Assembly (NCBI GenBank): GCA_019658995.1 | Contig: JAIFWN010000003.1 | Span: forward strand, 2,436 to 66,435 | From: Candidatus Parcubacteria bacterium | Lineage (GTDB): Bacteria > Patescibacteriota > Minisyncoccia > Phycocordibacterales > Zambryskibacteraceae | Direction of reading: 5' to 3' | Length of the DNA: 64,000 bases | Part shown: piece after piece, positions 7,533-43,243 of the stretch | Layout of the letters: the number at the start of each line of letters is the position of its first letter | Numbering within the stretch: the first letter of the stretch is position 1 | Translations under genes and position numbers: made by a program | The notes under the pieces: generated by a model | What the model was told of the DNA's origin: nothing | Database searches by the model: none | The model's input: only the letters and a program-made list of their open reading frames with translations

Positions 7533-8444
7533 CTATATAGAGACGAAGAGAGCCATAAACTTCATCGGATCGATGGAGATTCCACTGATTTTTACCGAGA
7601 TGTGGAGGTGGGGAAATTCGGCGTAGCCGGTCTGACCGCTCTTACCGATGCTCTGTCCCTTGGAAACATTCTGACCCTCTTCAATACTAACTTCCGAAAG
7701 ATGCATATATATGGTCTGAAGTCCAAACCCGTGATCTATGATAATAGTCTTACCGTAATTCCTAAACTCCCGCACGAGTCTCGCCTTACCACTGTTCATG
7801 GCATATACCGGTGTGCCGACAGCGGCACGGAAGTCGGTACCCTTATGGCTAATGGTAGTGTTTACCGTCGAGCGGGTATAGCCGTAGACATCGGTTATTT
7901 CCACCTTCTCCAGTGGAAAGCGGAACGGTCCCGACCACAATAACGCATTTTCCGACGGTACTGAGTTTATGATCGCATTTTCCTCAGCCAAGGTGGCAAT
8001 CAAATTGTTCGCCGCTTCGGGAGTATTGCCGCCGAGACTCTCAGGAATTCCGAGCGGAGCTGTAACTATCTGACGCTTGCTAATAATCAAATTCTTGCGC
8101 AGGGTGCGGCCATCGCTCAGGCTAAGAAACAGGGGATAGACTCCAACCGGCATCTTCAGATCTATACCGATGAGCGCCGTAGGCTTGTCATTGTATGTAA
8201 ATACCCCGAGTGGCTTGCCCTGGAATGTAAGTGATTTAATAGTCGAAGTACCTATGTTTTCGACTACTACTTCTGCCGGATCGCCCTGGAGAATTGTCTC
8301 CGGCAATATCGAAATCTTAACCTCTTGTATTTCAGTATCGGGCACATTTGGAGCGGTATTCTCTGGCGCTGTTGCGGGTTTGTGCCCCACAGCCAAAGCA
8401 ACAACTATAGCTGTGATTGTGACAATCAGTAAACCTCTCTTCAT
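7533..8444 (-). CDS. M23 family (LytM-type) metallopeptidase, secreted
   Basis: Signal peptide. C-terminal domain with HKGTDF ... D ... HLH (IDHGFGLQTIYMHLS, PHLHISV), the zinc-ligand motifs of peptidase M23. Confidence 0.8.
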   Translation of the reverse strand: MKRGLLIVTITAIVVALAVGHKPATAPENTAPNVPDTEIQEVKISILPETILQGDPAEVVVENIGTSTIKSLTFQGKPLGVFTYNDKPTALIGIDLKMPVGVYPLFLSLSDGRTLRKNLIISKRQIVTAPLGIPESLGGNTPEAANNLIATLAEENAIINSVPSENALLWSGPFRFPLEKVEITDVYGYTRSTVNTTISHKGTDFRAAVGTPVYAMNSGKARLVREFRNYGKTIIIDHGFGLQTIYMHLSEVSIEEGQNVSKGQSIGKSGQTGYAEFPHLHISVKISGISIDPMKFMALFVSI

Positions 8445-27211: not shown

Positions 27212-30200
27212 TTGAAAAAGCACTCTTCTCTGCATCTCATATTCACATTCTTTCTCACGGCGATTCTTATCTACTTGGGCGGATCGCCGCCCGCCGTGAT
27301 GTCCGCCGGAGGAGTGCCATCTATCATAAGTTACCAGGGGCGGCTTGCTGACTCGGCAGGCAACCTCCTCGGCAGCTCATCGGGAACCACATATTTTTTT
27401 GCCTTTTCTATTTGGGATAATGCCACGGTCGGTTCCGGCACGAAGCTCTGGCCTGTGGCCACAACCAGTGTGCCGACGACGGTCAAGTCGGGCGTATTCA
27501 ATGTCAATATTGGTGATACGGCAGGAGGTTATCCGGATACTCTTAACTACACCTTCACCAGCCCTAATATTTTCCTCCAGGTTGATGTGTCATCAAATGG
27601 CACAACCTGGGAAACAGTTTCTCCGCGCCAAAGACTCTCATCGGCTGTATTTGCACAGGTAGCAGAGGCGGTAGTGGGGGCTTCTTCGACCGTAACTACT
27701 CTCACCAATACCAATTTCTACGGTACCTTTGCTACTACGACCAGTGCTACCACTACCAACCTTTTTGCCAATTTTTTAAACAGCGCAACCGTCACAGCTA
27801 GCGGCTTGGGAACATTCGGCAATTTCTTGGCGCTCGGCTCTACGACTCTTCAGAACTTTACTGCACTAAATTCGACAACGACGAATGCCACCACTACGAA
27901 TATTTATGTGAATGGCAAGCTCTACGGAGCCAACCTCACCAACTGCAATAGCAATGCAGACAAACTGCTCTGGGCCAATGGCCTCTTCTCCTGTGGGACA
28001 GATGGAGGCGGAGGTGGATCGGACGTGGATTGGCTCTTCTTCAACAACACCGGAATAAGACTTGGCACTACTACCAACCAGGTCTTGATCGGGTTCAATG
28101 CCACTTCATCTCTGGCTATGCTTGAGCTCAATGTGCAAGCAGGCAAGATACCGCTCTTCATCGGATCGTCGACGGAGTTGTTCAAGATAGACGACTATGG
28201 CCTTGTCTCGGCGAAAAATCTTCTCCTTGACTCTTCAACCACCCTTCAGAACTTCACCTTCGTGAGCGCTACGGGATCACAGGCCACCACTACGAATCTC
28301 TTTACCAACACACTTTTCTCGACTACCGCTTCGTCTACGAATCTCTTTGCCAATACGGCCACCTTCGGCACTCTCGTAGCAGCGAGCTTCAATCCTGCCA
28401 ATATTACGACTGGTAACCTGCTTGTCACTGGCTCATCCACTCTCCAGAATTTCACCTTTATCAACGCCACAGGTTCCCAGGCTACTACCACCAACTTCTT
28501 CTCAACGGGTATCTTCTCAACGATTTTAAATAATTCAGGCCTAGCCACTCTTGGAAATATATTGTCCTCTGGATCATCGACGCTTCAGAACTTCACTTTC
28601 ATTAACGCTACCGGAACTTCCGCTACGACTACCAACTTCTTCTCCATCAATGCTTCGACCACCAACCTCTGGGCTAATGTCATCAGTTCCGGCCTCATTA
28701 ACGGCCAGACTATTACATCCGCTGCTAACTTTACCGGTACTCTAAATGCGACTGGAGGTTTAACAACTCTCTCAAATTTGTTAGTGGCAGGCTCTTCCAC
28801 TCTCCAGAATTTCACCTTTGCTAACGCTACCGGTTCTCAAGCTACGACTACTTACTTCTTCAGTACAAACCTCTTTGGCACGAATGGAAATCTAACAAAC
28901 TTGATATTCAGTCTGGCTACCGGTACCTCTGCCACCACCACTAATTTTTTCAGCACTACCGCCTCTTCTACTAACCTCTTCGCAACCACACTCAATACCG
29001 GTAATATTACCTCCACCGCTCTTGCTACCCTCGCCAATCTCTTAGTATCTGGATCTTCCACTCTCCAAAATTTCACTTTCGTTAACGCCACTGGCTCGCA
29101 AGCCACTACCACGAATCTCTTCTCTGCCAACCTCTTTGGCACTACAGGTTTCCTCACTAACTTACAGCTAAATGGTTCCTCAACTCTCCAAAACTTTACT
29201 TTCTCTAACGCTACCGGCACTTCCGCTACGACTACTAACTTCTTCGCCACCAATGCTTCGACCACCAACTTATGGGCCAACATCATATCTTCGGGTTTGA
29301 TAAACGGCCAAAACATTACAAGTGCCGCTAACTTCACTGGGACTCTCAATGCTACTGGCGGATTGACAACGCTTTCAAACTTGCTTATATCTGGATCTTC
29401 CACTCTCCAGAACTTTACCTTCGTCAACGCCACCGGGACCTCCGCCTCCACTACCAACTTCTTCGCCATCAATGCTTCCACCTCAAACCTCTTCGCCAAC
29501 TCTCTCACAGTAGGGAATATCACTTCAATCCAGGAAACAATCACCAACCTTCTGGCCCTAGGTTCTTCGACCCTGCAGAACTTTACCGGACTTAATTCGA
29601 CCACTACCAATGCCACTACCACCCGTTTAGCCATCATTTCTCTCAACTGCGGGACTTTTACTAACAATGGCAAGCTCACCACTAACGCTGATGGCACGGT
29701 TTCCTGCAGTGATGATATCGCTGCCACACAGGATGTCGATTGGATATTCTTCAACAACACCGGAGTGCGTCTGGCCACGACCACAAACCAAGTTCTCATC
29801 GGTGCAAGCGCCACATCATCTCTAGCCAATCTTGAGATCAGCTTCCAGACAGCAGCTAAGGGCTCACTTCTCACTCTCGGTTCATCGACTCTACAGAATT
29901 TCACCTTCATCACAGCCACCGGCACTGCGGCTACCACTACCAACTTCTTCGGCACTAATATCTTCTCTACGATTCTTAATAACTCGGGTCTGGCGACCCT
30001 GGGAAATTTGCTTGTATTAGGATCCTCAACTCTTCAGGATTTCACTTTCGTTAACGCCACTGGCTCGCAAGCCACTACAACCAGCCTCTTTTCGGCGAAT
30101 GTATTTGGTACGAATGCTAACCTGACAAATCTTATCTTCAGTCTGGCTACCGGCACCAGCGCCACAACTACTAACTTGTTCTCTGGCATATCAAGTTCGA

Positions 30201-33200
30201 CAAATCTCTTCTCTTCAGTTTTGACAGTCGGTAGCAATGCGCTCTTAGTTAACTCAAGCGGCTTTGTAGGCATTGCTACCACTTCGCCATTTGCCAGGCT
30301 TTCGGTAATGCTCAATGCCGGAGATACTAATACCACCGTTTTCGCAATCGGTTCCACCACTGCTACGGGCTTTACAAATCTCTTGAGAGTGGACAATCAA
30401 GGTTCAACTACAGTTAAGACCCTGCGTTTCGACGATACCGGTGCCAACAACCTTTTCTGGACGATACGGGAGGAGTCAGGCAATAACCTGGAAATTTTCT
30501 ATCCCTCGATTCGTCGTGGCGTGTTTGTTAACGCTGGCAATGGAGGCTTTCTCGGAATTGGTACTACCTCAATGCAGGGCTTCTCGTCATTCATCGTTGC
30601 CTCGGCTACCCCGACTATGGAGATTATGGACAACAACGGTCCTGTGGATCTGAAGCACTGGCTCATAAGCGCGGATGCCGGGAAATTCTTCATAGGCAGA
30701 GCGACGGATGACCTTTTATCAACTACCACTTACTTCTTCGTTGACGGCAATATGGGCGGCAATATAGGTCTCAATGAGGCATCACCGAACTTCAGACTCG
30801 AGGCGACAGGTACCAGCGGCAGCGGCTACTTCGGTATTACCAACGCCTCTGACGGCGACGTATTCAGCATTATCTCCACCGGTAATGTGGGAGTCAATGA
30901 TGCCACCCCGGACTTTAAGTTCGAGAGTAACGGCTCGAACGCGAGCGGCTACTTCGGCATCACTAACTCGAGTGATGGAGATATCTTTGCGATAGACGGG
31001 AGCGGAGAAGTGGGCATCGGCATAGTGAATCCGTCATACGCTCTCCATATAGTGGATGATACGAACGAGACGCTCGCCATTGAAACCATTCACACAACCG
31101 GTACATCTCTTGTAATCAAGAACACCAGCGGCGGCGGACACTCCTTTTCTCTCACCAGTACGGGCTCCGACGGCTCGCCAGGCAACTTCGTCATTAGAGA
31201 CAATACGGCGAACTTTACCGGCTTTGATCTTGCCGGAGCCACCGGCAACCTGCAGATTACGCGCGATGCCTACTTCGGCTGGTCATCGAACGCAAGCGAT
31301 GCAAAGGTTGCGGCCGATACTATACTCTCGCGCATCTCTGCCGGGGTTGTTGGCACGGCAAATCTTATACTCTCCGGCAATTCGACCACGTCGCAGGCTA
31401 CTACCACGAACTTCTTCTCGGCAACTATCTTCTCTGATCTTCTAAACAACTCCGGTTTGGCCACACTCGGCAATATGCTTGTTCTCGGCTCGTCCACTCT
31501 CCAGAATTTCACATTCGGCAACGCCACTGGCTCTCAAGCCACCACGACGAACCTTTTCTCGACTAAGGGTAGCTTCACCACTATCTGCTTCACCGGAGAT
31601 GTTTGCCGAACGTCATGGCCATCGACTGGCGGAGGCGGGGGATCAGACACCAATTGGCAATTCTTTAATAATTCTGGCATCCGGCTTGCTACGACTACCA
31701 ACCAGGTTCTCATTGGCGCTTCGGCTACCACATCTCTCGCTAACCTCGAGATCGCCTTCCAGACAGCAGCCGGAGGATCTCTGTATGCTCTTGGCTCCAC
31801 CACCCTTAATAATTTCGCCTTTGCTAACTCAACCGGATCTCAAGCAACTACTACCAACCTATTCTCCACCAATATCTTCAGTACGACAGGAAACGTCTCA
31901 GGCACTCAAACAGCGGGGAATTTGCTCGCCCTCGGATCTTCAACCCTTCAGAACTTCACATTTAGGAACGCTACTGGGAGTGATGCGACTACAACAAATT
32001 TCCGTGTTTCTAATAGAGCAAATATCGTGGATCTCACGGTTGGTAGTATAGAGGGCCTTAATTCAGCATCCTTTAATGTTACAGATGATGCCTCGGGTAT
32101 ATTCGAAGTCAATTCAGCGTCAGTAGGAGATGTATTCACTGTGAATGATTTTGGAACCCCCTATTTTTCAAGGAATCTCGGACTTGGCACATCGACGCCG
32201 TCTGCCAACCTGACGATACAGGATCCCAATCCAGAAATAAATTTCTATGAAAGTAATAACTTCGCCAAAACCAGGCTGGTTCAGCTTGGCGATTCGGAAT
32301 TCGATATCGTTATGTATGACGGTTCGGGTGTTGTCACAAACGCTCTCAATATGAATTTCAACGGCGAAAACGAATACCTTTCCGGTATGTCTGGAACACT
32401 CGGCAGCAATGCAAGCGCTCGGCATGTGTTCTACATCTCACAAAGTGAAGTTGGGGGATTCGATTACAGAGGACTTTTCTCTATTGGTAGTACTAAAACA
32501 AGCGGTGGAACAGCTGTGGCGGCACTCGATGTGACTGGAAACGGTTACATAAGCGGCAAGCTAGGAGTAGGTACAACTACTCCGTATGCAGGCCTCCAAA
32601 TAGCCACATCTACAAGGCCGCAACTCATACTTACGGATATTCTGGCCGGACCTAATGTCAAACATTTCTATGCATCTTCTACGAACGGCCGTCTTGCCAT
32701 AGGCAATCTAAGCGATAATCTCGGATCCTTTACCGATATCATGGACTTGAGCTCGACAGCGATAAACTTCACGCTTGGCAGCGAGGAAAATAAAAGTTTC
32801 AATATCAAAGATGGCCCCGGGCTAACCACTCTCTTTTCGGTTGATAACGATACCAAGACAGTGGGTATCGGGACCACTACGCCCGGAGCTAAATTAGAAG
32901 TGGCCAAAACCTCTTCTGGAGCTACCTCAGATGCTCTCTTCCTTTCCAACCAGGCCTCCGCAACCAATACAGCTACCCGCCTCTCCTTCAGAGCCCAGGA
33001 TATAAAGAATATTGCTACCACTACAGCTTCAATCGTCGGTTTATTGGGTAAGAATTTCGATCAAGCTACCTCAACCCTGATCTTCTCCACACAAAATGCC
33101 GGCACCCTCACCGAGCAAATGCGATTAACTGACACAGGCCTCCTGCTGATCGGATCAACTACACTGCAAAATTTTACATTCAGAAATGCTACCGGCACCT

Positions 33201-35455
33201 CGGCTACAACCACCAACTTCTTCGCTACGAACGCTTCAACCACTAACTTTTTCGCTAACGTAATAAGTTCAGGTCTTATCAATGGCCAGACAATATCAAG
33301 CGCTGCGAACTTCACAGGCACTCTCAATGTCACAAGCGGTCAGACAACCGTATCAAATCTTTTGGCGACGGGATCCAGCACCCTCCAGAACTTCACTTTT
33401 GTTAATGCTACTGGCACTTCGGCTACAACCACCAACTTCTTCGCTACAAATGCTTCCACGACTAACCTCTTCTACGCCAACGCTGTCGGAGGAGCGGAGA
33501 CCCTGAGTGGATTGCTGACGGCTGCCAATATCCGATCGAACGGCTCGTCCACCCTCCAGAACTTCACATTTGTAAATGCGACGGGTTCCCAGGCTACGAC
33601 TACAAATTTGTTCTCAACTAACTTATTTGGCACGACAGGCAACTTCTCTGGTCTCTTAACTCTCGGAAATCTTTTGCTCACAGGCTCTTCGACCTTCCTG
33701 AATCTAACTTTTGTTAATGCTACCGGCACTTCCGCCACAACTACAAATCTCTTTGCCACCACGCTCTTCTCAACCACTCATAACAACTCGGGTCTGATCA
33801 CTACAGGCAATCTCCTGGCATCAGGCTCTTCAACTTTGCAGAGTTTTACAGCAATTAATTCGACAACATCACAGGCTACCTCGACCAATTTCTTCTCAAC
33901 GAATATCTTCGGCACAACAGGAAATATTTCTGGACTCTCGACTTTCGGCAATCTCCTTGTGTCCGGGTCGAGCACGCTTCAAAACCTCACCTTCTCCAAT
34001 GCGACGGGCTCGCAAGCTACCACAACAAATATCTTCTCCACTAACATCTTCGGCACGACTGGAAATGTTTCCGGTCTGGCTACTTTGGGTAACCTCCTCG
34101 TCTCCGGCTCCTCCACTCTTCAGAACTTCACTTTCGTTAATGCTACCGGCACTTCCGCTACAACAACAAACTTCTTCGCTACGAATGCTTCTACTACCAA
34201 TCTCTTCTTCACGACCAGCAGGGGAGGATCGGAGACCCTCACTGCCACTCTCACCGCCAATAATCTTCTTGCTAACGCTTCTTCCACTCTCCAAAACTTC
34301 ACATTTGTTAACGCCACAGGCTCACAAGCGACGACAACGAATCTGTTTGCAACCAATCTTTTTGGCACTACGGGAAATATATCGGGTACGCAGACAGTGG
34401 GGAATTTACTCTCGCTAGGCTCATCAACCTTACAAAACTTCACATTCTCTAACGCCACAGGCACTTCAGCGACCACAACCAACTTCTTTGCTACCAATGC
34501 TTCGACCACAAACTTCTGGGCAAACGTTATATCTTCTGGTCTTATCAATGGCCAAACCATTACCTCTGCAGCCAACTTCACCGGAACTCTTAATGTTACA
34601 AGCGGACAAACTACACTCTCAAATCTTCTTGTTACTGGGTCTTCAACCCTCCAGAACTTCACCTTCATAAACGCGACGGGTTCCCAGGCTACTACAACAA
34701 ATTTATTTGCCACAACTCTATTCTCAACAACACACAATAATTCGGGTCTTGGTATATTTGGCAATATTCTGTCCCTTGGCTCATCTACTCTTCAGAATTT
34801 CACGTTTGCTAATGCTACCGGTTCCCAGGCGACAACAACCAGTCTTTTTGCGACGAAAGCAGACTTTACAACTCTATGTATAGCTCAGGATTGTAAAACA
34901 GCCTGGCCTACGTCCGGAGGAGCTTCCACTGATAAGTTTGCAACTTCAACAAACGGATTGGCAATTTATCCGAACAGCGCCGCGGCAGTAGTGATAGGCG
35001 GCAGTGCCACAACCACAACCGGAGCAGAGCTCGAAGTACTCGGGGATATCTATGTTTCTGGTTCCTCAACCCTTCAGAACTTTACCTTCATAAACGCCAC
35101 AGGAACTTCAGCGACCACTACTAATTTATTTAGTACTACGGCTTCTTCTACAAACCTCTTCGCTACTGCTATCCAAGCCGGTACGGCCACATTCAATAAT
35201 ATTCTTGGGAACAGCTCCTCCACTCTCCAAAACTTCACCTTCGTCAACGCTACGGGTACATCGGCCACCACCACCAATTTCTTCGCTACCAACGCCTCTA
35301 CTACCAACTTCTTCTTTACCACATCGAACGGCGGCAACGAGACCCTTACTGCTCGAACTTCACATTCATCAACGCCACTGGCTCCCAGGCTACGACCAGT
35401 AACCTATTCAGTACGAATATATTTGGTACCACCGGCAATTTGTCTGGACTCCTGA
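27212..35455 (+). CDS. Giant repeat-rich surface protein, N-terminal segment (2747 aa), most likely one gene with 35440..41061
   Basis: TTG start. N-terminal hydrophobic helix (LHLIFTFFLTAILIYLGG). Then dozens of diverged ~40-45-aa repeats (GSSTLQNFTFxNATG[ST]xATTTN[LF]F[AS]T) and three Cys-pair/DVDWxFFNNTGxRLxTTTNQVLIG modules. Ends in frame-shifted repeat sequence. Confidence 0.7.
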   Translation: MKKHSSLHLIFTFFLTAILIYLGGSPPAVMSAGGVPSIISYQGRLADSAGNLLGSSSGTTYFFAFSIWDNATVGSGTKLWPVATTSVPTTVKSGVFNVNIGDTAGGYPDTLNYTFTSPNIFLQVDVSSNGTTWETVSPRQRLSSAVFAQVAEAVVGASSTVTTLTNTNFYGTFATTTSATTTNLFANFLNSATVTASGLGTFGNFLALGSTTLQNFTALNSTTTNATTTNIYVNGKLYGANLTNCNSNADKLLWANGLFSCGTDGGGGGSDVDWLFFNNTGIRLGTTTNQVLIGFNATSSLAMLELNVQAGKIPLFIGSSTELFKIDDYGLVSAKNLLLDSSTTLQNFTFVSATGSQATTTNLFTNTLFSTTASSTNLFANTATFGTLVAASFNPANITTGNLLVTGSSTLQNFTFINATGSQATTTNFFSTGIFSTILNNSGLATLGNILSSGSSTLQNFTFINATGTSATTTNFFSINASTTNLWANVISSGLINGQTITSAANFTGTLNATGGLTTLSNLLVAGSSTLQNFTFANATGSQATTTYFFSTNLFGTNGNLTNLIFSLATGTSATTTNFFSTTASSTNLFATTLNTGNITSTALATLANLLVSGSSTLQNFTFVNATGSQATTTNLFSANLFGTTGFLTNLQLNGSSTLQNFTFSNATGTSATTTNFFATNASTTNLWANIISSGLINGQNITSAANFTGTLNATGGLTTLSNLLISGSSTLQNFTFVNATGTSASTTNFFAINASTSNLFANSLTVGNITSIQETITNLLALGSSTLQNFTGLNSTTTNATTTRLAIISLNCGTFTNNGKLTTNADGTVSCSDDIAATQDVDWIFFNNTGVRLATTTNQVLIGASATSSLANLEISFQTAAKGSLLTLGSSTLQNFTFITATGTAATTTNFFGTNIFSTILNNSGLATLGNLLVLGSSTLQDFTFVNATGSQATTTSLFSANVFGTNANLTNLIFSLATGTSATTTNLFSGISSSTNLFSSVLTVGSNALLVNSSGFVGIATTSPFARLSVMLNAGDTNTTVFAIGSTTATGFTNLLRVDNQGSTTVKTLRFDDTGANNLFWTIREESGNNLEIFYPSIRRGVFVNAGNGGFLGIGTTSMQGFSSFIVASATPTMEIMDNNGPVDLKHWLISADAGKFFIGRATDDLLSTTTYFFVDGNMGGNIGLNEASPNFRLEATGTSGSGYFGITNASDGDVFSIISTGNVGVNDATPDFKFESNGSNASGYFGITNSSDGDIFAIDGSGEVGIGIVNPSYALHIVDDTNETLAIETIHTTGTSLVIKNTSGGGHSFSLTSTGSDGSPGNFVIRDNTANFTGFDLAGATGNLQITRDAYFGWSSNASDAKVAADTILSRISAGVVGTANLILSGNSTTSQATTTNFFSATIFSDLLNNSGLATLGNMLVLGSSTLQNFTFGNATGSQATTTNLFSTKGSFTTICFTGDVCRTSWPSTGGGGGSDTNWQFFNNSGIRLATTTNQVLIGASATTSLANLEIAFQTAAGGSLYALGSTTLNNFAFANSTGSQATTTNLFSTNIFSTTGNVSGTQTAGNLLALGSSTLQNFTFRNATGSDATTTNFRVSNRANIVDLTVGSIEGLNSASFNVTDDASGIFEVNSASVGDVFTVNDFGTPYFSRNLGLGTSTPSANLTIQDPNPEINFYESNNFAKTRLVQLGDSEFDIVMYDGSGVVTNALNMNFNGENEYLSGMSGTLGSNASARHVFYISQSEVGGFDYRGLFSIGSTKTSGGTAVAALDVTGNGYISGKLGVGTTTPYAGLQIATSTRPQLILTDILAGPNVKHFYASSTNGRLAIGNLSDNLGSFTDIMDLSSTAINFTLGSEENKSFNIKDGPGLTTLFSVDNDTKTVGIGTTTPGAKLEVAKTSSGATSDALFLSNQASATNTATRLSFRAQDIKNIATTTASIVGLLGKNFDQATSTLIFSTQNAGTLTEQMRLTDTGLLLIGSTTLQNFTFRNATGTSATTTNFFATNASTTNFFANVISSGLINGQTISSAANFTGTLNVTSGQTTVSNLLATGSSTLQNFTFVNATGTSATTTNFFATNASTTNLFYANAVGGAETLSGLLTAANIRSNGSSTLQNFTFVNATGSQATTTNLFSTNLFGTTGNFSGLLTLGNLLLTGSSTFLNLTFVNATGTSATTTNLFATTLFSTTHNNSGLITTGNLLASGSSTLQSFTAINSTTSQATSTNFFSTNIFGTTGNISGLSTFGNLLVSGSSTLQNLTFSNATGSQATTTNIFSTNIFGTTGNVSGLATLGNLLVSGSSTLQNFTFVNATGTSATTTNFFATNASTTNLFFTTSRGGSETLTATLTANNLLANASSTLQNFTFVNATGSQATTTNLFATNLFGTTGNISGTQTVGNLLSLGSSTLQNFTFSNATGTSATTTNFFATNASTTNFWANVISSGLINGQTITSAANFTGTLNVTSGQTTLSNLLVTGSSTLQNFTFINATGSQATTTNLFATTLFSTTHNNSGLGIFGNILSLGSSTLQNFTFANATGSQATTTSLFATKADFTTLCIAQDCKTAWPTSGGASTDKFATSTNGLAIYPNSAAAVVIGGSATTTTGAELEVLGDIYVSGSSTLQNFTFINATGTSATTTNLFSTTASSTNLFATAIQAGTATFNNILGNSSSTLQNFTFVNATGTSATTTNFFATNASTTNFFFTTSNGGNETLTARTSHSSTPLAPRLRPVTYSVRIYLVPPAICLDS

Positions 35456-35800
35456 CTCTCGGCAATCTTTTGCTTACTGGTTCCTCCACTCTCCAAAACT
35501 TCACCTTCGTTAATGCTACCGGTACTTCCGCTACAACAACAAACTTCTTCGCTACAAATGCTTCCACAACCAATCTCTTTGCCACAGCTATACAAGCCGG
35601 TACCGCAACGTTTAACACCATTCTCGCCAATGCTTCCTCCACTCTCCAAAACTTCACCTTCGTCAACGCTACGGGTACATCGGCCACCACCACCAATTTC
35701 TTCGCTACCAACGCCTCTACTACCAACTTCTTCTTTACCACATCGAACGGCGGCAACGAGACCCTTACTGCTCGTACCAATGCCACAACCACAGGGACTC
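27660..35800 (+). repeat. Coding tandem repeat array, about 135-bp (45-codon) diverged units
   Basis: Recurrent GGNTCNTCNACNCTNCAGAAYTTCACNTTC cores at irregular ~120-140 bp spacing. Units differ at DNA level except one exact 140-bp duplicate. Confidence 0.8.
35216..35774 (+). repeat. Exact 140-bp direct duplication (35216..35355 and 35635..35774), 419-bp period, spanning the ORF break
   Basis: The two blocks match at every base by line-by-line comparison. The 419-nt period makes the copies fall in different frames. Confidence 0.9.
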
Positions 35801-38800
35801 TCAATGTGAACGGGCTCCAGTTTGCGGACAACGGAGCCAACAACCGATACTGGACGATCACCGAAGATGCAGGCAATAATCTTCAGATTTCCTACCCTGT
35901 AGCTACCGATGTCCGTATCAATCAGAACTTCCTGGTCAGTGGCTCTACCACTCTTCAGAATTTCACATCGCTCAACGCTACCACTGCTCAGGCCACTACT
36001 ACAGCCCTGGCTATAAGCAGTCTTAATTGTTCTTCGGGCGCACAGCTCCTCCAGACAAACTCATCAGGCAGCGTAATCTGCGGTACGGACGATGGCGGTG
36101 CCGGCAGTACGCCTGGGGGTAATGCCGGAGCAGTACAGTTCAACGACGGTGCAAGCGGCTTCACCGGCAACGAAAACTATCTGTTCTTCAGTAATGCCAA
36201 TAAACTCTTTGGTATCGGAAGCTCCACTCCGACTGCTATTTTATCGGCGTCGAGTACGACTGCGCTGCTTCCGGTAGCAATCTTTGATCAGCGCAGTACG
36301 GGAGGGCTTCTTACTCTCCAGCGTTCGGGAGTGGACAAGTTCACAGTCAGTAACGACGGCGGACTCAATATTTATGGCGCAACTTCCGATTCTGTCAAAA
36401 CCACTACGGGCACCGGCAAATCATCTGACTTCGACTTTACCGGTTCCACTATCGCAACCGCCAGCACTACCGCAACAAACGGTTATGTGACTATCATTGA
36501 CGGCACGATCTCCGGAGACGGTATAGTTTCCGCAACCACTACTACGACCGGTACGGTCATAGGAAACGGCGCCCAGGTTATCATTCGCTCCGACGGGCAA
36601 TATGTGATTATCCAAGGAGGTGGTACGGCAACAGCTTCTATCTGGGACGGATTCAAGAGTGGTTCCGGTGCAGCAAGCATGGCAACCACTACCATCGCTA
36701 CCGGCGGTACGGTTAACACAGGCGCTATAGCTGTCAAGCGCCCAGACGGCAGATATGTCATCTTCCACGGAGGTGCCGCTAACTTGAGTTCGATATTTGA
36801 TCCTTACAACATAACAGCAGCGGTAGCCGGTCCGCCTCCGGGAGGAGCTTGTACGACCGGTACTAACGCATTTCTGCGTCCCGACGGCAAGTATGTAGTC
36901 ATATGCGGAGGAACTACGGGATGGGGAGTATATGATCCGTCTCAGGCTCCTCCGGGCTCACTTACTGCCGGTACCGCCATAGGCGGCAACTGGGGGGCTG
37001 GCGCACACGCACTCTCAAGAGATGACGGAACCTTCCTTGTTTATCAGGGAGGTGGATCCAATACCTTTATTTACAATCCGTTCACCAATACCATGACAGC
37101 GGGTCCTACTGCGCCCGCCGCTATTGCCGCCGGTGCTTTATCTGTTCGGAGGCAGGACGGCACATTCCTTACTCTTCCGGGAGCGGCCAATACTTCCTAT
37201 TCCTATAATCCGGTAAGCACTACAACGCCGAACGGGCAGGGAGCCTTCGTTACCAATTTCGGAGTCGGACCTTCATCATCACTCTCTGACGGCTCGACAA
37301 TACTCTGGAGACAAGACGGGAAGTACACTCTGATTACCGCCAATACTACCGTGTTAAACGTGGTAGATCCCGGTTCCGGATCTATTGTTCCTAAGTTTAC
37401 CAATCCGGGCGCACCCCTAGCTCTTTCCGGGAATGCCGGAGCGGGTATCACTGCCTTTATGCTGCCGAACGGCAGGTACGCCATACTGCGCGGCGGCGGC
37501 CAAGCCATTGATACTTACGACATGAACTTCGCTACCGGTTTATCGAGCGGCAATGTTCAAAATTCATACTACGAAAGCGAATGTATAGATAACACCAATT
37601 TGTCCTTGGACTCGACTCTGAACTGGAACAAAAATGACGAAGGCACTATCTCGGCCCAAATAAGAACTGTAACCAGTCCTCAGGACTGCTCGACGGCGAC
37701 ATACCGCACCATACAATCTAGCGGCAGTCTCATTGGTGCCACCACTACGGCCAACAACAGGGTCCAGTTCAAATTCTTCTTCCAGCGCGAACTTCCGAGA
37801 TTCCTCGACCAGGAGTGGGGTGTGCGTAAGACCGCGCAGACCAGATACCGCCGCGTCAACGCCGACCCGGTCCTCTATGATGTAACGGTAGACAACTCCA
37901 CATCACTCCATAGAACGCAGTTCGACTTTGGCAATGCCGTATCCTCTACTACGGCACCATCTTCAGGACCGGTAGCGGTTAACATTACCAATGACACAAA
38001 CCGCAACAACGCCTTAGCTCTGGCTGCAGGCGTCGGCTACGGCACTACCATTAACACTGCGAATAACGGCTATTACAACGGAGCTTTTGGCTTTGCCCAG
38101 CCGCTTTCAACACCGACAGCATCCACCACCGTGGTAATGAAGCGCCCCGATGGCAAGTTCACTATCATTGCCGGTAACAATACGATCAACTCCAATGTTT
38201 ATGACCCGGCACTGGCTACCTCTACTGCCGCCACTGCCGCAGCCAATAAACCTACGGTACAAATAGGCAATGGCGCATTGGCCTTCAAGCGTCCCGATGG
38301 CAAGTTCCTGATAGTCATGGGTAACACGAGCAGTACCACGGTCTCCTCCGTTGGTGCTACTACTACGAACATTTATGATCCGGTTACCGACACGTACGTT
38401 GCCGGACCGAATCTGGCAACCGGCGGAAGCAGTAACGGTGCCGGTGCCGGCGCGGCTGTCATTCCTCTCCCTAGCGGCAGGGTACTCATCATTCATGGCA
38501 ATGCTACCAACGCTACTTCTGTATATGATCCGGTACAGAACACCATGACTGCCGGACCGAATCCTACGGCTGTAGTAGGTTACGGTTCAATAGTGATTCC
38601 TCGTCCTAACGGCCAGTATATGTTCATACCCGGTATGGTCTCGCTTACCTCTTGTACGGTGAACACCACAGTTAACCTCTTCGATCCATATGCCATGGTG
38701 TTTACTACAAATGCTGGTGTGGCTAATGCAGGCGGCACAGGACCGGGAGCCTTTGCATTACAAAGGAGTGACGGCACATGGCTCATAGTTCGTGGAGGTG

Positions 38801-41061
38801 CATCAACCGGTTGTCTCGGTACGGGCACTACTGCTATCTATGATCCAGTCTCCCATCTGTCCACTATTACCGGTCCTGGTTTATCAACAAATGTCGGCCT
38901 TGGAGCTTACGCTCTGCCTCGTCCTGACGGCACATGGCTTCTTGTAAATGGCGGCGGCGGAGTATCACTCGCCGGTCAGAGTGCTACACAAATATATATA
39001 GAACGAGGTGGAGGGTTAACCGCTACCGGTGACCAGTCAACAATTGGCGCATTTATCTCTGGTCCGACGATGAACGTGGCGGCAAATAGCGGAGGTACGG
39101 CCTTTCAGCTTCCTGACGGCAAGTTCGCCATCATAACGGGAGCTGCGACTACCACTACATCCAACAGTATGCAGTTCTACGATGCAGGATGGGTAGCGAG
39201 TGGCATATACAGGTCTGAGCAATTTGACCTCTCTCCAGTGGGGACGAAGCTCGATTCCAACTCAACTCTTAACTGGAAGTCGAACATGATATCATCCGCT
39301 GTGGGCGGTATCTCCGCCGAAGTAAGGAGCGCTCCCACACAAGCTGCTCTGGCAACGAGTACTACGAGGGAGATACCGATATCGGGCGGACTCATCAATC
39401 CGGCCGCCACCGACACCTGGCTCCAGATAAACTTCAACTTCAGGAGAAGCTTCCCATCTTACGGAGGTATATACAGCGACGTATGGTACTCTTCCGCATC
39501 TATGAGCTATCCACTTCGTCCTGTTGTTACTCCGACTTTGTATGAATTTAAGATAACAAAAGATGATGATCTTTTGACTCTTAACGCCGATGGCTTGGCG
39601 CTCTTCAGAGTCAACTCTGGCGGAGACGTCTATACATCGACAGGAGGCACCATCAACACCTCCGGCGCAGACCTTGCCGAGCGCTATACCTCGCAAGAGC
39701 CTCTCGACTTCGGCGAAGTGGTCTCGGTCGATCCGATGAATAATCATGCGGTCAAGAAAACTTCTTACCAATATCAGCCCGATGCACTCGGTGTGGTCTC
39801 GACCGATCCGGGCTTCGTGGCGGGCGCTTATACTGAAGATTCTTATCCAATAGCTCTTGTCGGCCGCGTGCCGGTAAAGGTTTCGACGGAAAACGGCTTC
39901 ATCCGCGCCGGCGACAAGCTCACAGCAGCGAGCGTCCCTGGCTATGCCATGAAGGCTACTCTTGCCGGACATGTTATCGGCCACGCACTCGAGAATCTTA
40001 AGAGCGATAAGCTTGTAGACTGCCCGGCAAGCAGTATCGTCATACCCGGCAGGAAGTGCGGAGTTGTGATGATGTTCGTCAGCCTTGGGGATTTCATAGG
40101 AGAACCGGTTGGCGATGCCATGATGGAGTACAACAGTTTGCACAATATAGATATTTCGAGCTTTGCTACTACATCTGTGATGCTCGGCGATGAAGCTATA
40201 GGCATTGTACCGGGTACGAGGGAAGCCAACGTATTGAACTTCCTAGAAAACCTGAGGAAGGATAGGGAAGCCGGCTCTTCTTACCGCTCCGAAGTATTTG
40301 CCGATAGAGTATCGGCTGTTTCAGACATTATCGCGCCAAACATTTTTACCCGTATTCTCAAGGCTGAAAGTGTGGAAGGACTGACATTTAAAAGCGATAA
40401 GGTCATTGCCAATGCTTTGGTAGTAAATAGCATCGGTGCTGAGGGCACGACCACGCTAGCTCTTATGGGTGATGTGAACTTCTTCGGTCGACCTTACTTT
40501 ACTTCGGACACTGCTGGCAGTGCCATCATAAAGAAGGGCGCTAAAACAGTGGAGATCATCTTCGACAAGGAGTACATCGATACGCCGATAGTGAGTTCCA
40601 CTATCGCTCTTGAGTCGGCTTCGACGAGCGAAGCACAGGAAGAAGAGATATTCACTCAAGATATCCGCTTCATAGTCTCAAGAAAGAGTGTTCACGGCTT
40701 TACCATAATCTTGAACAAGCCGGCTCCAAACGACATCGGCTTCAGCTGGATAGCTCTGGCGGTGAAGGACTCAAAACTCTTCACCTCAAGAGAAATACCG
40801 CTTGCCGAGACTACTCCGATCACCGCAGTTGTAGAATCTGTGCCTCCTCCGCCAACAACTCCGCCAGTCTCAAATGAGCCGACTTCTACAACCACTATGC
40901 CAGTTGAGGCAACAAGCACTCCATCTATGATAGAAACCACGCCTACAACTACTCCTTCCGTATTACCATCTGAACCAGAATTAACTCCCCAAGTCGAGCC
41001 CGAATCAACACCTATAGTTGATGTTTCTCCATCTGAACCATCCCCGCAAAGCGGGCCATAA
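35440..41061 (+). CDS. Giant surface protein, C-terminal segment (1873 aa): repeats, Kelch-like propeller blades, C-terminal globular region, Pro/Thr-rich tail
   Basis: The track starts at a TTG inside continuing repeat sequence. About 12 blade-like units of pattern [RK]xDG[KT][FYW]hhhxGG ... YDP. Ends with a P/T/S/E-rich low-complexity tail. Confidence 0.7.
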   Translation: MSGLLTLGNLLLTGSSTLQNFTFVNATGTSATTTNFFATNASTTNLFATAIQAGTATFNTILANASSTLQNFTFVNATGTSATTTNFFATNASTTNFFFTTSNGGNETLTARTNATTTGTLNVNGLQFADNGANNRYWTITEDAGNNLQISYPVATDVRINQNFLVSGSTTLQNFTSLNATTAQATTTALAISSLNCSSGAQLLQTNSSGSVICGTDDGGAGSTPGGNAGAVQFNDGASGFTGNENYLFFSNANKLFGIGSSTPTAILSASSTTALLPVAIFDQRSTGGLLTLQRSGVDKFTVSNDGGLNIYGATSDSVKTTTGTGKSSDFDFTGSTIATASTTATNGYVTIIDGTISGDGIVSATTTTTGTVIGNGAQVIIRSDGQYVIIQGGGTATASIWDGFKSGSGAASMATTTIATGGTVNTGAIAVKRPDGRYVIFHGGAANLSSIFDPYNITAAVAGPPPGGACTTGTNAFLRPDGKYVVICGGTTGWGVYDPSQAPPGSLTAGTAIGGNWGAGAHALSRDDGTFLVYQGGGSNTFIYNPFTNTMTAGPTAPAAIAAGALSVRRQDGTFLTLPGAANTSYSYNPVSTTTPNGQGAFVTNFGVGPSSSLSDGSTILWRQDGKYTLITANTTVLNVVDPGSGSIVPKFTNPGAPLALSGNAGAGITAFMLPNGRYAILRGGGQAIDTYDMNFATGLSSGNVQNSYYESECIDNTNLSLDSTLNWNKNDEGTISAQIRTVTSPQDCSTATYRTIQSSGSLIGATTTANNRVQFKFFFQRELPRFLDQEWGVRKTAQTRYRRVNADPVLYDVTVDNSTSLHRTQFDFGNAVSSTTAPSSGPVAVNITNDTNRNNALALAAGVGYGTTINTANNGYYNGAFGFAQPLSTPTASTTVVMKRPDGKFTIIAGNNTINSNVYDPALATSTAATAAANKPTVQIGNGALAFKRPDGKFLIVMGNTSSTTVSSVGATTTNIYDPVTDTYVAGPNLATGGSSNGAGAGAAVIPLPSGRVLIIHGNATNATSVYDPVQNTMTAGPNPTAVVGYGSIVIPRPNGQYMFIPGMVSLTSCTVNTTVNLFDPYAMVFTTNAGVANAGGTGPGAFALQRSDGTWLIVRGGASTGCLGTGTTAIYDPVSHLSTITGPGLSTNVGLGAYALPRPDGTWLLVNGGGGVSLAGQSATQIYIERGGGLTATGDQSTIGAFISGPTMNVAANSGGTAFQLPDGKFAIITGAATTTTSNSMQFYDAGWVASGIYRSEQFDLSPVGTKLDSNSTLNWKSNMISSAVGGISAEVRSAPTQAALATSTTREIPISGGLINPAATDTWLQINFNFRRSFPSYGGIYSDVWYSSASMSYPLRPVVTPTLYEFKITKDDDLLTLNADGLALFRVNSGGDVYTSTGGTINTSGADLAERYTSQEPLDFGEVVSVDPMNNHAVKKTSYQYQPDALGVVSTDPGFVAGAYTEDSYPIALVGRVPVKVSTENGFIRAGDKLTAASVPGYAMKATLAGHVIGHALENLKSDKLVDCPASSIVIPGRKCGVVMMFVSLGDFIGEPVGDAMMEYNSLHNIDISSFATTSVMLGDEAIGIVPGTREANVLNFLENLRKDREAGSSYRSEVFADRVSAVSDIIAPNIFTRILKAESVEGLTFKSDKVIANALVVNSIGAEGTTTLALMGDVNFFGRPYFTSDTAGSAIIKKGAKTVEIIFDKEYIDTPIVSSTIALESASTSEAQEEEIFTQDIRFIVSRKSVHGFTIILNKPAPNDIGFSWIALAVKDSKLFTSREIPLAETTPITAVVESVPPPPTTPPVSNEPTSTTTMPVEATSTPSMIETTPTTTPSVLPSEPELTPQVEPESTPIVDVSPSEPSPQSGP

Positions 41062-41523: not shown

Positions 41524-41919
41524 ATGGAAAATTTGAAGCAGGAATTCAAGAGTCTGTCTAAGAAGTTAAGAATGGTATTTCTGGCAGTTCTGACAGTCGG
41601 GATCCTTAGCTTAATCTCAACGGCCGTATTGGCAGAGAAGCTCCAGAAGGCTTCGGATCCGGCTCTGGCTGCGCAGGAAGAGATACAGAAGGTCGTGGCT
41701 GAAGTGGGAAGGTTCATAATCCTGCCTGACGATGAGACCCCAACCATGGCAACTGTCTCGGACCCCTCGAAGCTTAGCGGCCAGCCGTTCTTCGAAAATG
41801 CGGAAGCTGGTGATAAGGTTCTCATCTATACCATATCCAGGAAGGCTATACTCTGGAGACCGTCTACAAAGAAAATAATCGAGGTAGCCTCTATCAATGT
41901 CACTTCTCCAGCACAATAA
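41524..41919 (+). CDS. Membrane-anchored hypothetical protein
   Basis: 131 aa, N-terminal coiled segment plus TM helix; TATAAT 8 nt upstream. Confidence 0.45.
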   Translation: MENLKQEFKSLSKKLRMVFLAVLTVGILSLISTAVLAEKLQKASDPALAAQEEIQKVVAEVGRFIILPDDETPTMATVSDPSKLSGQPFFENAEAGDKVLIYTISRKAILWRPSTKKIIEVASINVTSPAQ

Positions 41920-43243
41920 CAGAGCACTTAAGGTTCTCATTCTCTCTTTCGTCTTTGCCGGAATATTTTCCACAGCTAGGGCGCAAAACTTCTCTTCCGG
42001 CGGCTATTCCGTACTCGCTCCAGTTATCGCTCCCGGCGGACACTCTACCTCCCCAAGCTACTCTCTCATAAGCGTAATATCCCAGCTTGCCATAGGCACT
42101 TCATCGGCAACCGCTTTTAATCTATCAAGCGGTTTCCTGTATTATCCCTTCATAACCACGCCTATTCTCGCGGCCACTCCGGGTAATGCGCAGGTAGTGC
42201 TCAATTGGACGGCTGCCGACGGTGTGCTTGGCTGGTCGGTCGGCTCGTACTCGGTGGGACAAACTGTTACGGCGGGCAGTGATTACTCATACACTAATGT
42301 CGGCAATGTACTCACCTCGACTCGTACAGGACTTTCCAATGGCACTACTTACTACTTTATAATCCGGGTCATCGACGCGGCTGGCAATACAGTAGCTACT
42401 TCGACTGAAGTCTTTGCTATGCCCGTCGCTCCGGCTGGCGGAGGAGGTGGAGGCGGGGGCGGAGGTGGCGGAGGAGGTGGAGGCGGGGGCGGAGGATACA
42501 CTGGCGGTGGTACTGGGAGCGGCAGAGTGAACTTCTCAGGACGGGCCTATCCGCGAAGTACGGTGACGGTTCTTAAGGACGCACAAGTTGTCATTACTAC
42601 CGTGGCTGATGCTGCAGCCAACTTCGCAGTCTCACTTATGAACCTCTCGGGAGGTAATTACTTCTTCTCATTATATAGCGAAGACAACAATGGCGTGCGC
42701 AGCAGTCTCCTGACCTTTCCGGTTTCCGTTACCGATGGCTCTACCATGAATATCGGAGGCATCTTCATCACTCCGACCATTGCCGTAGACAAAAGCGAAG
42801 TCAAAAGGGGAGACAATATCTCTATCTTTGGCCAGACGGCCGCCCAGAGTGATGTCACGATCCAGGTTAACTCCGACGAGCCCTTCTTCGCCAAAACCAA
42901 GGCTGATGCCTCCGGTGGCTATCTCTATAATTTCGACACGGTGCCACTTGAGTATGGCGACCACAGCACCAAATCCAAGAGCGCTTTGTCGGGTGAGATC
43001 AGCTCATTCAGCTCCGTTGCCGCCTTCAAAGTCGGCACACAGAACGTGCTTATAGGCAACTTGCCGAAGACTTGCAATAAAAAGGGCGATACCAACAAGG
43101 ACTGCAAGGTTAACCTTGTGGACTTCTCTATAGTAGCCTTCTGGTACAAGCGCCCCAATCCGCCGGCCAATGTCGATCTGAACGGCGATAAAAAAGTGGA
43201 CCTCATAGACTTTTCCATACTGGCTTATAACTGGACCGGATGA
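41897..43243 (+). CDS. Secreted FN3-like/Ig-like protein with C-terminal dockerin-type tandem Ca-binding repeats
   Basis: Signal peptide, FN3-like segment (PGNAQVVLNWTA ... TTYYF), 40-residue Gly tract, Ig-like region. C-terminal duplicated dockerin type I segments GDTNKDCKVNLVDFSIVAFWY and DLNGDKKVDLIDFSILAYNW. Confidence 0.65.
   Translation: MSLLQHNNRALKVLILSFVFAGIFSTARAQNFSSGGYSVLAPVIAPGGHSTSPSYSLISVISQLAIGTSSATAFNLSSGFLYYPFITTPILAATPGNAQVVLNWTAADGVLGWSVGSYSVGQTVTAGSDYSYTNVGNVLTSTRTGLSNGTTYYFIIRVIDAAGNTVATSTEVFAMPVAPAGGGGGGGGGGGGGGGGGGGGYTGGGTGSGRVNFSGRAYPRSTVTVLKDAQVVITTVADAAANFAVSLMNLSGGNYFFSLYSEDNNGVRSSLLTFPVSVTDGSTMNIGGIFITPTIAVDKSEVKRGDNISIFGQTAAQSDVTIQVNSDEPFFAKTKADASGGYLYNFDTVPLEYGDHSTKSKSALSGEISSFSSVAAFKVGTQNVLIGNLPKTCNKKGDTNKDCKVNLVDFSIVAFWYKRPNPPANVDLNGDKKVDLIDFSILAYNWTG
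42431..42490 (+). repeat. Tandem 30-bp x2 GGN repeat encoding the poly-Gly linker
   Basis: GGCGGAGGAGGTGGAGGCGGGGGCGGAGGT is repeated twice head-to-tail. Confidence 0.9.

Follow-up and report, generated by a model that had tools for sequence, protein, structure and literature searches.

This study concerns an interrupted giant gene in a Candidatus Parcubacteria bacterium, lying in a 64,000-nucleotide (nt) stretch of contig JAIFWN010000003.1 that we analysed as a whole and call the window. Two neighbouring open reading frames (ORFs), both on the forward strand but in different reading frames, cover a long array of protein repeats and a large region beyond it, and one frame gives way to the other at the end of an exact 140-nt duplication. 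The features that define the gene are these:

27212-35455, forward strand: ORF1, the N-terminal half of the giant gene, 2747 amino acids (aa) (MBX4195606, KW796_01460), with a hydrophobic N-terminal signal or anchor (KKHSSLHLIFTFFLTAILIYLGG) and most of the repeat array.
35356-41061, forward strand: the C-terminal half of this gene, read in the -1 frame, annotated from a TTG at 35440 as ORF2, 1873 aa (MBX4195607, KW796_01465).
27839-36084, forward strand: the repeat array, at least 28 units of the form (G)SSTLQNFTFxNATG[ST][QS]ATTTNxF, with a commonest spacing of 141 nt.

The frame of the C-terminal half is open from 35200, and homologous coding in that frame begins at 35356. From there to its stop ORF1 runs through 33 out-of-frame codons, TSHSSTPLAPRLRPVTYSVRIYLVPPAICLDS (a tail that can also be written TSHSSTPLAPRL... 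or TSHSSTPLAPRLRPVTYSVR). ORF2 consists of the last repeat units followed by a non-repetitive region of ~1,750 aa. Neither half has a significant family in Pfam, NCBIfam or PHROGs; a PDB sequence search gave a faint Kelch/beta-propeller similarity for ORF2, and for the C-terminal 603 aa of ORF1 an AlphaFold single-sequence model is all-beta at low confidence (mean predicted local distance difference test score, pLDDT, 46). In the protein collection both ORFs are singletons, and each occurs on a single contig, 84,368 bp long, from a metagenome-assembled genome of a Candidatus Parcubacteria bacterium.

It is the relatives that tell us what the two ORFs are. ORF2 is 45-75% identical, over about 1270-1770 aa (mostly about 1560-1770), to the C-terminal parts of long frames at related loci (L001, L004, L005, L007, L008, L015, L016 and L018), and the N-terminus of ORF1 is 40-51% identical to the N-termini of the single-ORF relatives L015, L007, L004 and L008. 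In these last four loci one ORF of 2295-2798 aa matches both the N-terminus of ORF1 and the C-terminal region of ORF2 (about 47-49%, about 1,560-1,680 aa). Since the relatives join both parts in a single ORF, ORF1 and ORF2 are, by homology, the halves of one gene for a predicted secreted or anchored repeat protein of roughly 4,600 aa. Relatives of the giant gene are spread across Patescibacteria, and seven of the eight loci with a full upstream flank hold a single open frame (at one of the seven, L006, it leaves the right end of the contig). At the eighth, L012, a run of Ns splits the gene. The syntenic ortholog, L001 (73% nt identity), has the same downstream genes of 131, 437, 250 and 579 aa and the same ribonucleotide reductase (RNR) genes, and keeps the array and the C-terminal region within one open frame of 3618 aa.

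The break itself lies beside an exact duplication, which a preliminary description of the window had picked out and which holds up base for base:

35216-35355, forward strand: copy 1 of the 140-nt block, probably the derived copy, cut mid-unit at ...NETLTA(R).
35635-35774, forward strand: copy 2 of the block, the presumed donor; the terminal unit in its native context, with an in-frame continuation as ...TARTNATTTGTLNVNG and then the C-terminal region.

The two blocks agree at 140 of 140 positions, and not one further base matches to the left or to the right. Their left flanks are 69% identical over 75 nt, in line with the ~70% first estimated, and their right flanks, at 19% over 75 nt, are unrelated; unique sequence, 279 nt long, separates the copies. 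The encoded peptide is in both cases SSTLQNFTFVNATGTSATTTNFFATNASTTNFFFTTSNGGNETLTA(R), as had been described; copy 1 shares the frame of ORF 27212-35455, copy 2 that of ORF 35440-41061, and copy 1 is followed directly by AACTTCACATTCATCAACGCC. As assembled, the junction at 35355/35356 reads GCTCG and then AACTTCAC, with GCTCGAACTTC across it. Copy 2 leads, as ...ETLTARTNATTTGTLNVNG and with no change of frame, into the C-terminal region; units of the ortholog L001 have a similar continuation, (T/S)xxNATTT, and the tail of the unit at 34109, ...SETLTATLTANNLLAN, is homologous.

Nothing else in the window resembles this pair. The block is the longest exact repeat of the 64 kb, the runner-up being 40 nt. 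When the 28 repeat units that can be located by their SSTLQNFT head were compared over 140 nt in all 378 pairings, the block pair stood at 100%, the next at 81% and the mean at 53%. The units of the array are thus ancient and diverged, and the identity of the two blocks is far beyond chance: at 81% identity per base, 140 matches in 140 would be expected with a frequency of about 1e-13. The spacings of exact repeats in the array are all multiples of three, except for those that cross 35355/35356, which are all 2 mod 3. The frame therefore breaks once and once only, where copy 1 ends on its right.

To see what happened there, the units on either side have to be taken into account:

35063-35215, forward strand: unit X1, an old paralogue of X2 (84% aa and 69% nt identity) with saturated third positions.
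35482-35634, forward strand: unit X2, between the interrupted unit and the donor unit.
35239-35363, forward strand: the net 125-nt insertion, for which several registers are equivalent and one is given here; it comprises 117 donor-only bases and AACTTCAC, copied a second time.
35231-35238, forward strand: the left AACTTCAC of an 8-nt direct repeat that bounds the insertion.
35356-35363, forward strand: the right AACTTCAC of that repeat, the first bases past the non-homologous junction at 35355/35356.
35356-35481, forward strand: the body of the interrupted unit, NFTFINATGSQATTSNLFSTNIFGTTGNLSGLLTLGNLLLTG, whose head, SSSTLQ at 35213-35230, lies on the other side of the insertion.

The unit that begins NFTFINATGSQ... 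after the junction is one of only two among 32 NATG..ATTT cores without an SSTLQNFTF head. Removal of 35239-35363 gives the head back: SSSTLQ and NFTFINATGSQATTSNLFSTNIFGTTGNLSGLLTLGNLLLTG meet in exact register, a canonical SSSTLQNFTFINATGSQ... unit results, and a stop-free ORF of 4574 aa runs through the whole gene. This shorter allele, the ancestral one in our reading, would read ...GGGAACAGCTCCTCCACTCTCCAAAACTTCACATTCATCAACGCC. Because 125 is 3x41+2, the insertion shifts the frame (-1/+2), and translation from the ORF1 start would stop at 35455, with the loss of the C-terminal ~1,900 aa, a part that has no predicted signal peptide of its own. Two other repairs also give one ORF. Deletion of 419 nt, as by recombination between the copies, leaves a stop-free ORF of 4476 aa, in which the X1-specific left flank GGGAACAGC would be followed by the block and then by TACCAATGCCACAACC; and one base added at 35355/35356 gives 4616 aa without a stop, as the preliminary description had pointed out. 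That description took the join to skip part of a unit and drop one base. The junction is better described as an insertion of 125 nt into an intact unit, bounded by AACTTCAC.

It had also been proposed that the sequence repeats with a period of 419 nt, in a recent duplication or gene conversion that carried a frameshift. Recent copying stands, on the strength of the 140 identical bases and of their place as a unique outlier among the unit pairs; the period does not, because only 140 of the 419 nt are alike, and 419 is merely the distance from the donor to the copy. X1 and X2 differ at 47 of 153 nt, in 31 synonymous against 8 non-synonymous codon differences and with 25% identity at third positions, a pattern that reads as synonymous saturation under purifying selection, and the 100 nt before X1 and the 100 nt before X2 are 37% identical. 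With saturation of this order there was no recent tandem duplication of 419 or 420 nt; only the 140-nt block is recent. We had considered such a duplication, with a slip of 1 nt, since a tandem copy of 35356-35774 would create a novel junction of the kind seen (block end joined to NFTF) and since 300 nt at an offset of 419 do show 82% identity. A recent duplication would be near-identical throughout, however, and here the identity outside the block falls to 69% over about 177 nt (25% at third positions) and to 37% over the first about 100 nt. An old out-of-frame one, for its part, would not have left the downstream frame open for 5.6 kb. The pattern of divergence thus refutes a simple tandem duplication, with no similarity over a whole period to be found, and we give the idea next to no credence. 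Unequal crossing-over between the heads of two units fares no better: it would yield either the upstream flank, one block and the downstream region, or else the interrupted unit and X2 duplicated in full, and neither is what the sequence holds.

The reading that we favour, and consider likely, is that the giant gene was broken very recently by a non-reciprocal copying event within itself, and that the lesion is real. About 117-140 nt of the terminal repeat unit would have been copied into the head of an upstream unit. Replication or repair synthesis would have entered the conserved head of the upstream unit (TCCTCCACTCTCCAAAACTTCAC, 35216-35238), which donor and recipient have in common over 23 nt, and then have switched templates to the terminal unit, whose head, 419 nt downstream (35635 onward), is identical. 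Having copied the terminal unit as far as ...ACTGCTCG (35774), it would have returned to the original unit illegitimately, with no microhomology, at AACTTCAC, which lies 8 nt too early in the recipient, upstream of the homologous departure point. We infer a template switch or a one-ended gene conversion that began in the unit head and was resolved illegitimately, with copy 2 as the probable donor and copy 1 as the recipient; the junction would then be present in the DNA of the organism. The 5.6 kb of ORF2 hold no stop, which fits a very recent break, and the allele is presumably a young pseudogene or a truncation variant. Seen in this way the lesion is an ordinary fresh mutation that breaks a gene, an event of a known kind that calls for no new mechanism or system. 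An imperfect inverted repeat of 10 nt lies beside the illegitimate junction: the last bases of copy 1 (35346-35355, TTACTGCTCG) are 90% complementary to 35393-35402 (CGACCAGTAA), 37 nt downstream. It is probably a match at the level of chance.

Several facts weigh against self-copying as the explanation, and most of them lend themselves to another, namely that the junction was made by assembly, scaffolding or library preparation, and that the real gene is intact, with sequence between ...TLTAR and NFTF... that is missing or different here. Contig ends may have been abutted, or a gap closed, with no Ns to mark the place; a chimeric molecule may have formed by template switching in multiple displacement amplification or the polymerase chain reaction and have been locally dominant; or the contig may be a consensus of several strains. 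A single metagenome-assembled contig carries the junction: JGI metagenomes and GTDB species representatives, scanned with the unique part of ORF2, gave only relatives of at most 58% aa identity and no other assembly of the strain. The right-hand join has no microhomology, which leaves the template-switch step without independent support. The identity between the copies stops at the very base of the junction, in the way that de Bruijn contigs break off at the boundary of an exact repeat, and 140 is k-1 for k=141, which we take to be the default largest k of MEGAHIT, so that 140 nt would presumably be the longest repeat it can traverse; this is an awkward coincidence, though one with no evident mechanism for making the junction. 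The giant-gene family is also one that breaks assemblies. In 13 of 21 related loci (L002, L003, L009-L011, L013, L014 and L017-L022) the gene leaves the end of the contig, either inside the region homologous to ORF2 or a little upstream of it. Short-read contigs thus routinely stop at the N-terminal array, and most members in the databases are partial. In the homologous gene at L012 (JAHFOF010000004, nzgw498; 7985-8236) a gap of 10 Ns (8106-8115) is flanked by an exact 121-nt duplication (7985/8116), so that the split there is an assembly artefact, an un-merged overlap of contig ends, and not a frameshift. Giant repeat-rich genes are, more generally, known for mis-assembly or fragmentation from short reads (bioRxiv 10.1101/2023.11.21.568195).

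Set against this is the junction itself. The window contains 0 Ns, and the copies lie 279 nt apart, so that there is neither a run of Ns nor a pair of abutting duplicated contig ends. The sequence on the left side of the junction, GAGACCCTTACTGCTCG, occurs in the window only in the two copies, and that on the right, AACTTCACATTCATCAACGCC, is unique in it even when up to two mismatches are allowed. We found no similarity that spans the junction in the window, and with no homology across it a collapse or mis-join mediated by a repeat cannot generate it. The collapse or mis-join at a perfect repeat that the preliminary description had offered as one of its options is for these reasons disfavoured. 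The start of the segment after the junction repeats nothing exactly elsewhere in the window, which is unlike a contig end. Graph-based assemblers, moreover, emit only those junction k-mers that are present in the reads. A real insertion would lead one to expect that a unit is restored exactly in register once the 125 nt are taken out; for an arbitrary abutment this would be a coincidence. An artefact is on balance unlikely, though it has to be kept seriously in mind.

A smaller error would do as well: the hybrid junction might be real and in frame, and the contig short of one base (GCT CGA AAC TTC, for example, with AAA read as AA; GCTCGAAACTTC), in which case the 4616-aa ORF would contain one aberrant unit of 88 aa. 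The stop-free frame that one added base gives, and the AA at the junction that would become AAA, speak for it. A homopolymer of 2-3 nt is no indel hotspot for short reads, however, and the other long genes checked in the window have no frameshifts: those for GroEL, the large and small subunits of RNR and an SBP_bac_5 solute-binding protein are all intact, which indicates that the contig is not prone to indels. The restoration in register by removal of 125 nt would again be a coincidence, and an error that fell exactly on the sole rearrangement junction of 64 kb would be improbable in itself. We regard a missing base as very unlikely.

Could the split be functional? The two frames overlap by 256 nt (35200-35455), and a -1 shift anywhere in the overlap would fuse the halves, by programmed -1 ribosomal frameshifting or by transcriptional slippage; alternatively, ORF2 might be expressed on its own. 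The overlap contains no slippery heptamer of the form X XXY YYZ, and its longest and only homopolymer of at least 4 nt is the AAAA at 35229, off the junction. The switch point that homology defines, CGA/ACT, is not slippery either. A split gene is not conserved among the relatives, which encode one ORF, and a break so recent that the copies show 0 differences in 140 bases is too young for a conserved feature. ORF2 lacks a signal peptide, shows no evident ribosome-binding site and starts, as annotated, at a TTG within a repeat unit, so a separately functional ORF2 looks unlikely. A functional split as a whole we think hardly credible.

The self-copying that we favour has one further consequence, which bears on the suggestion of phase variation in the preliminary description. 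As direct repeats of 140 nt set 279 nt apart, the copies make reversion by homologous recombination possible, in frame and with a gene 419 nt shorter. To this limited extent, with a frame that the copies could restore by recombining, the suggestion survives. A classical contingency locus does not, for there is neither a homopolymer tract nor one of short tandem repeats at 35355/35356 or close by. One can go further and picture the 140-nt copy as one state of a reversible switch between a full-length giant surface protein and one truncated before its beta-propeller-like C-terminal region: out-of-register copying within the gene would turn it off, and a RecA-mediated, in-frame deletion of 419 nt between the direct repeats would turn it on. 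Were this true, an episymbiotic bacterium from the candidate phyla radiation (CPR) could evade phage or modulate its attachment to the host, by a phase variation based on duplication inside a repeat array. We hold such a switch to be improbable. A diversity-generating retroelement was also considered and rejected, given the 0 differences between the copies and the lack of any reverse transcriptase found nearby; no reverse-transcriptase domain was present among the 14 neighbouring ORFs scanned, which span 18.9-50.8 kb.

Gene-internal copying of this sort has precedents. The closest experimentally documented analogue is the reversible inactivation of the pneumococcal capsule genes cap3A, cap8E and tts by spontaneous intragenic duplication (Waite et al. 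2001, 2003, as cited in PMC4243769). In the account given there, these are tandem duplications with precise excision, and their reversibility and high frequency were shown experimentally. As in the cap3A type, a stretch of the gene's own coding sequence has here been duplicated inside the ORF and has shifted the frame, and deletion between the direct repeats restores it (to the ORF of 4476 aa). The copies here are not in tandem, however. The new one lies 279 nt from its source within a pre-existing array, and recombination between the two would remove two native units.

Copying in one direction among repeats of surface-protein genes is familiar from Neisseria pilE/pilS, Borrelia vlsE and Mycoplasma genitalium MgPa, where segments are transferred by non-reciprocal gene conversion. 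The likeness lies in a donor that would have been copied into a homologous recipient while itself remaining unchanged, with entry through a conserved, identical head of 23-30 nt. In those systems the silent cassettes stand outside the expressed gene, the exits are homologous on both sides and the frame is kept, whereas here donor and recipient would share one ORF, the exit would be illegitimate and the product is out of frame; there is, besides, a single event and no repertoire. The group B streptococcal alpha C protein and the mycoplasma Vlp and Vsa proteins vary in size by gain and loss of repeat units. With these, and with the ortholog L001, our gene shares a repeat array that appears to be under selection at the protein level and in which units continue to be duplicated. 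The array of L001 contains exact repeats of 728 nt (period 576), 540 nt (1995) and 281 nt (1650), with spacings that are all multiples of three, so very recent duplication of units in frame is normal for the family. The events in alpha C, Vlp, Vsa and L001 are in register and keep the frame, unlike the one described here, which is out of register (125 and 419 nt). The artefact at L012 is, finally, the comparison that has to be made with most care: there too an exact duplication of roughly k-mer length stands beside a broken frame, in a homologous gene. The copies at L012 abut a run of Ns, though, and those described here have no Ns about them, are set apart by unique in-frame units, and yield a restored unit when 125 nt are taken out.

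For annotation, the consequence is that KW796_01460 and KW796_01465, both "hypothetical proteins" in GenBank, are one gene of about 4,600 aa and, as assembled, should be annotated as frameshifted. For the evolution of repeat arrays in giant CPR surface proteins, the locus would be a snapshot in which one very recent copy lies atop synonymously saturated units. It suggests that out-of-register copying can knock out giant array genes and yet leave them a built-in route of reversion.

Gene callers have trouble with such arrays in other ways. Long antisense ORFs run across the array, at 28852-29955, 34120-34764 and 35346-35876 on the reverse strand (367, 214 and 176 aa); they are most likely by-products of the bias toward Thr, Ser, Ala and Asn codons and could be mis-called as genes. 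GC skew is about -0.33 at 28-30 kb and at 34-36 kb. In L001 (1278-12134, JGI Ga0642625_11913) the JGI gene calls cover no more than the final 1229 aa of the 3618-aa frame and include antisense ORFs over the array. An N-terminal ORF of 285 aa (369-1226) is separated by a break from the main frame of L001, and the RNR genes on that contig are fragmented, so the contig may be rich in errors.

Just downstream of the giant gene, at 41897-43243 on the forward strand, lies a gene for a 448-aa protein with Big_6 (immunoglobulin-like, Ig-like) and type I dockerin domains. The dockerin protein is kept at this position, with 51-70% aa identity along almost its whole length, at 10 or more of the 22 related loci (L001, 12594-13865; L012, 15592-16848; and L019, L003, L002, L013, L014, L021, L017 and L010), and the giant repeat protein and its dockerin-bearing partner look like a conserved gene pair. 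Inside the dockerin/Ig-like gene, at 42436-42495, there is an exact tandem repeat of 30 nt (period 30). At the far left of the window, at 823-973, two tRNA-Thr genes (anticodons GGT and CGT) stand head to tail, 1 nt apart, with an exact 20-nt repeat in common (830/907).

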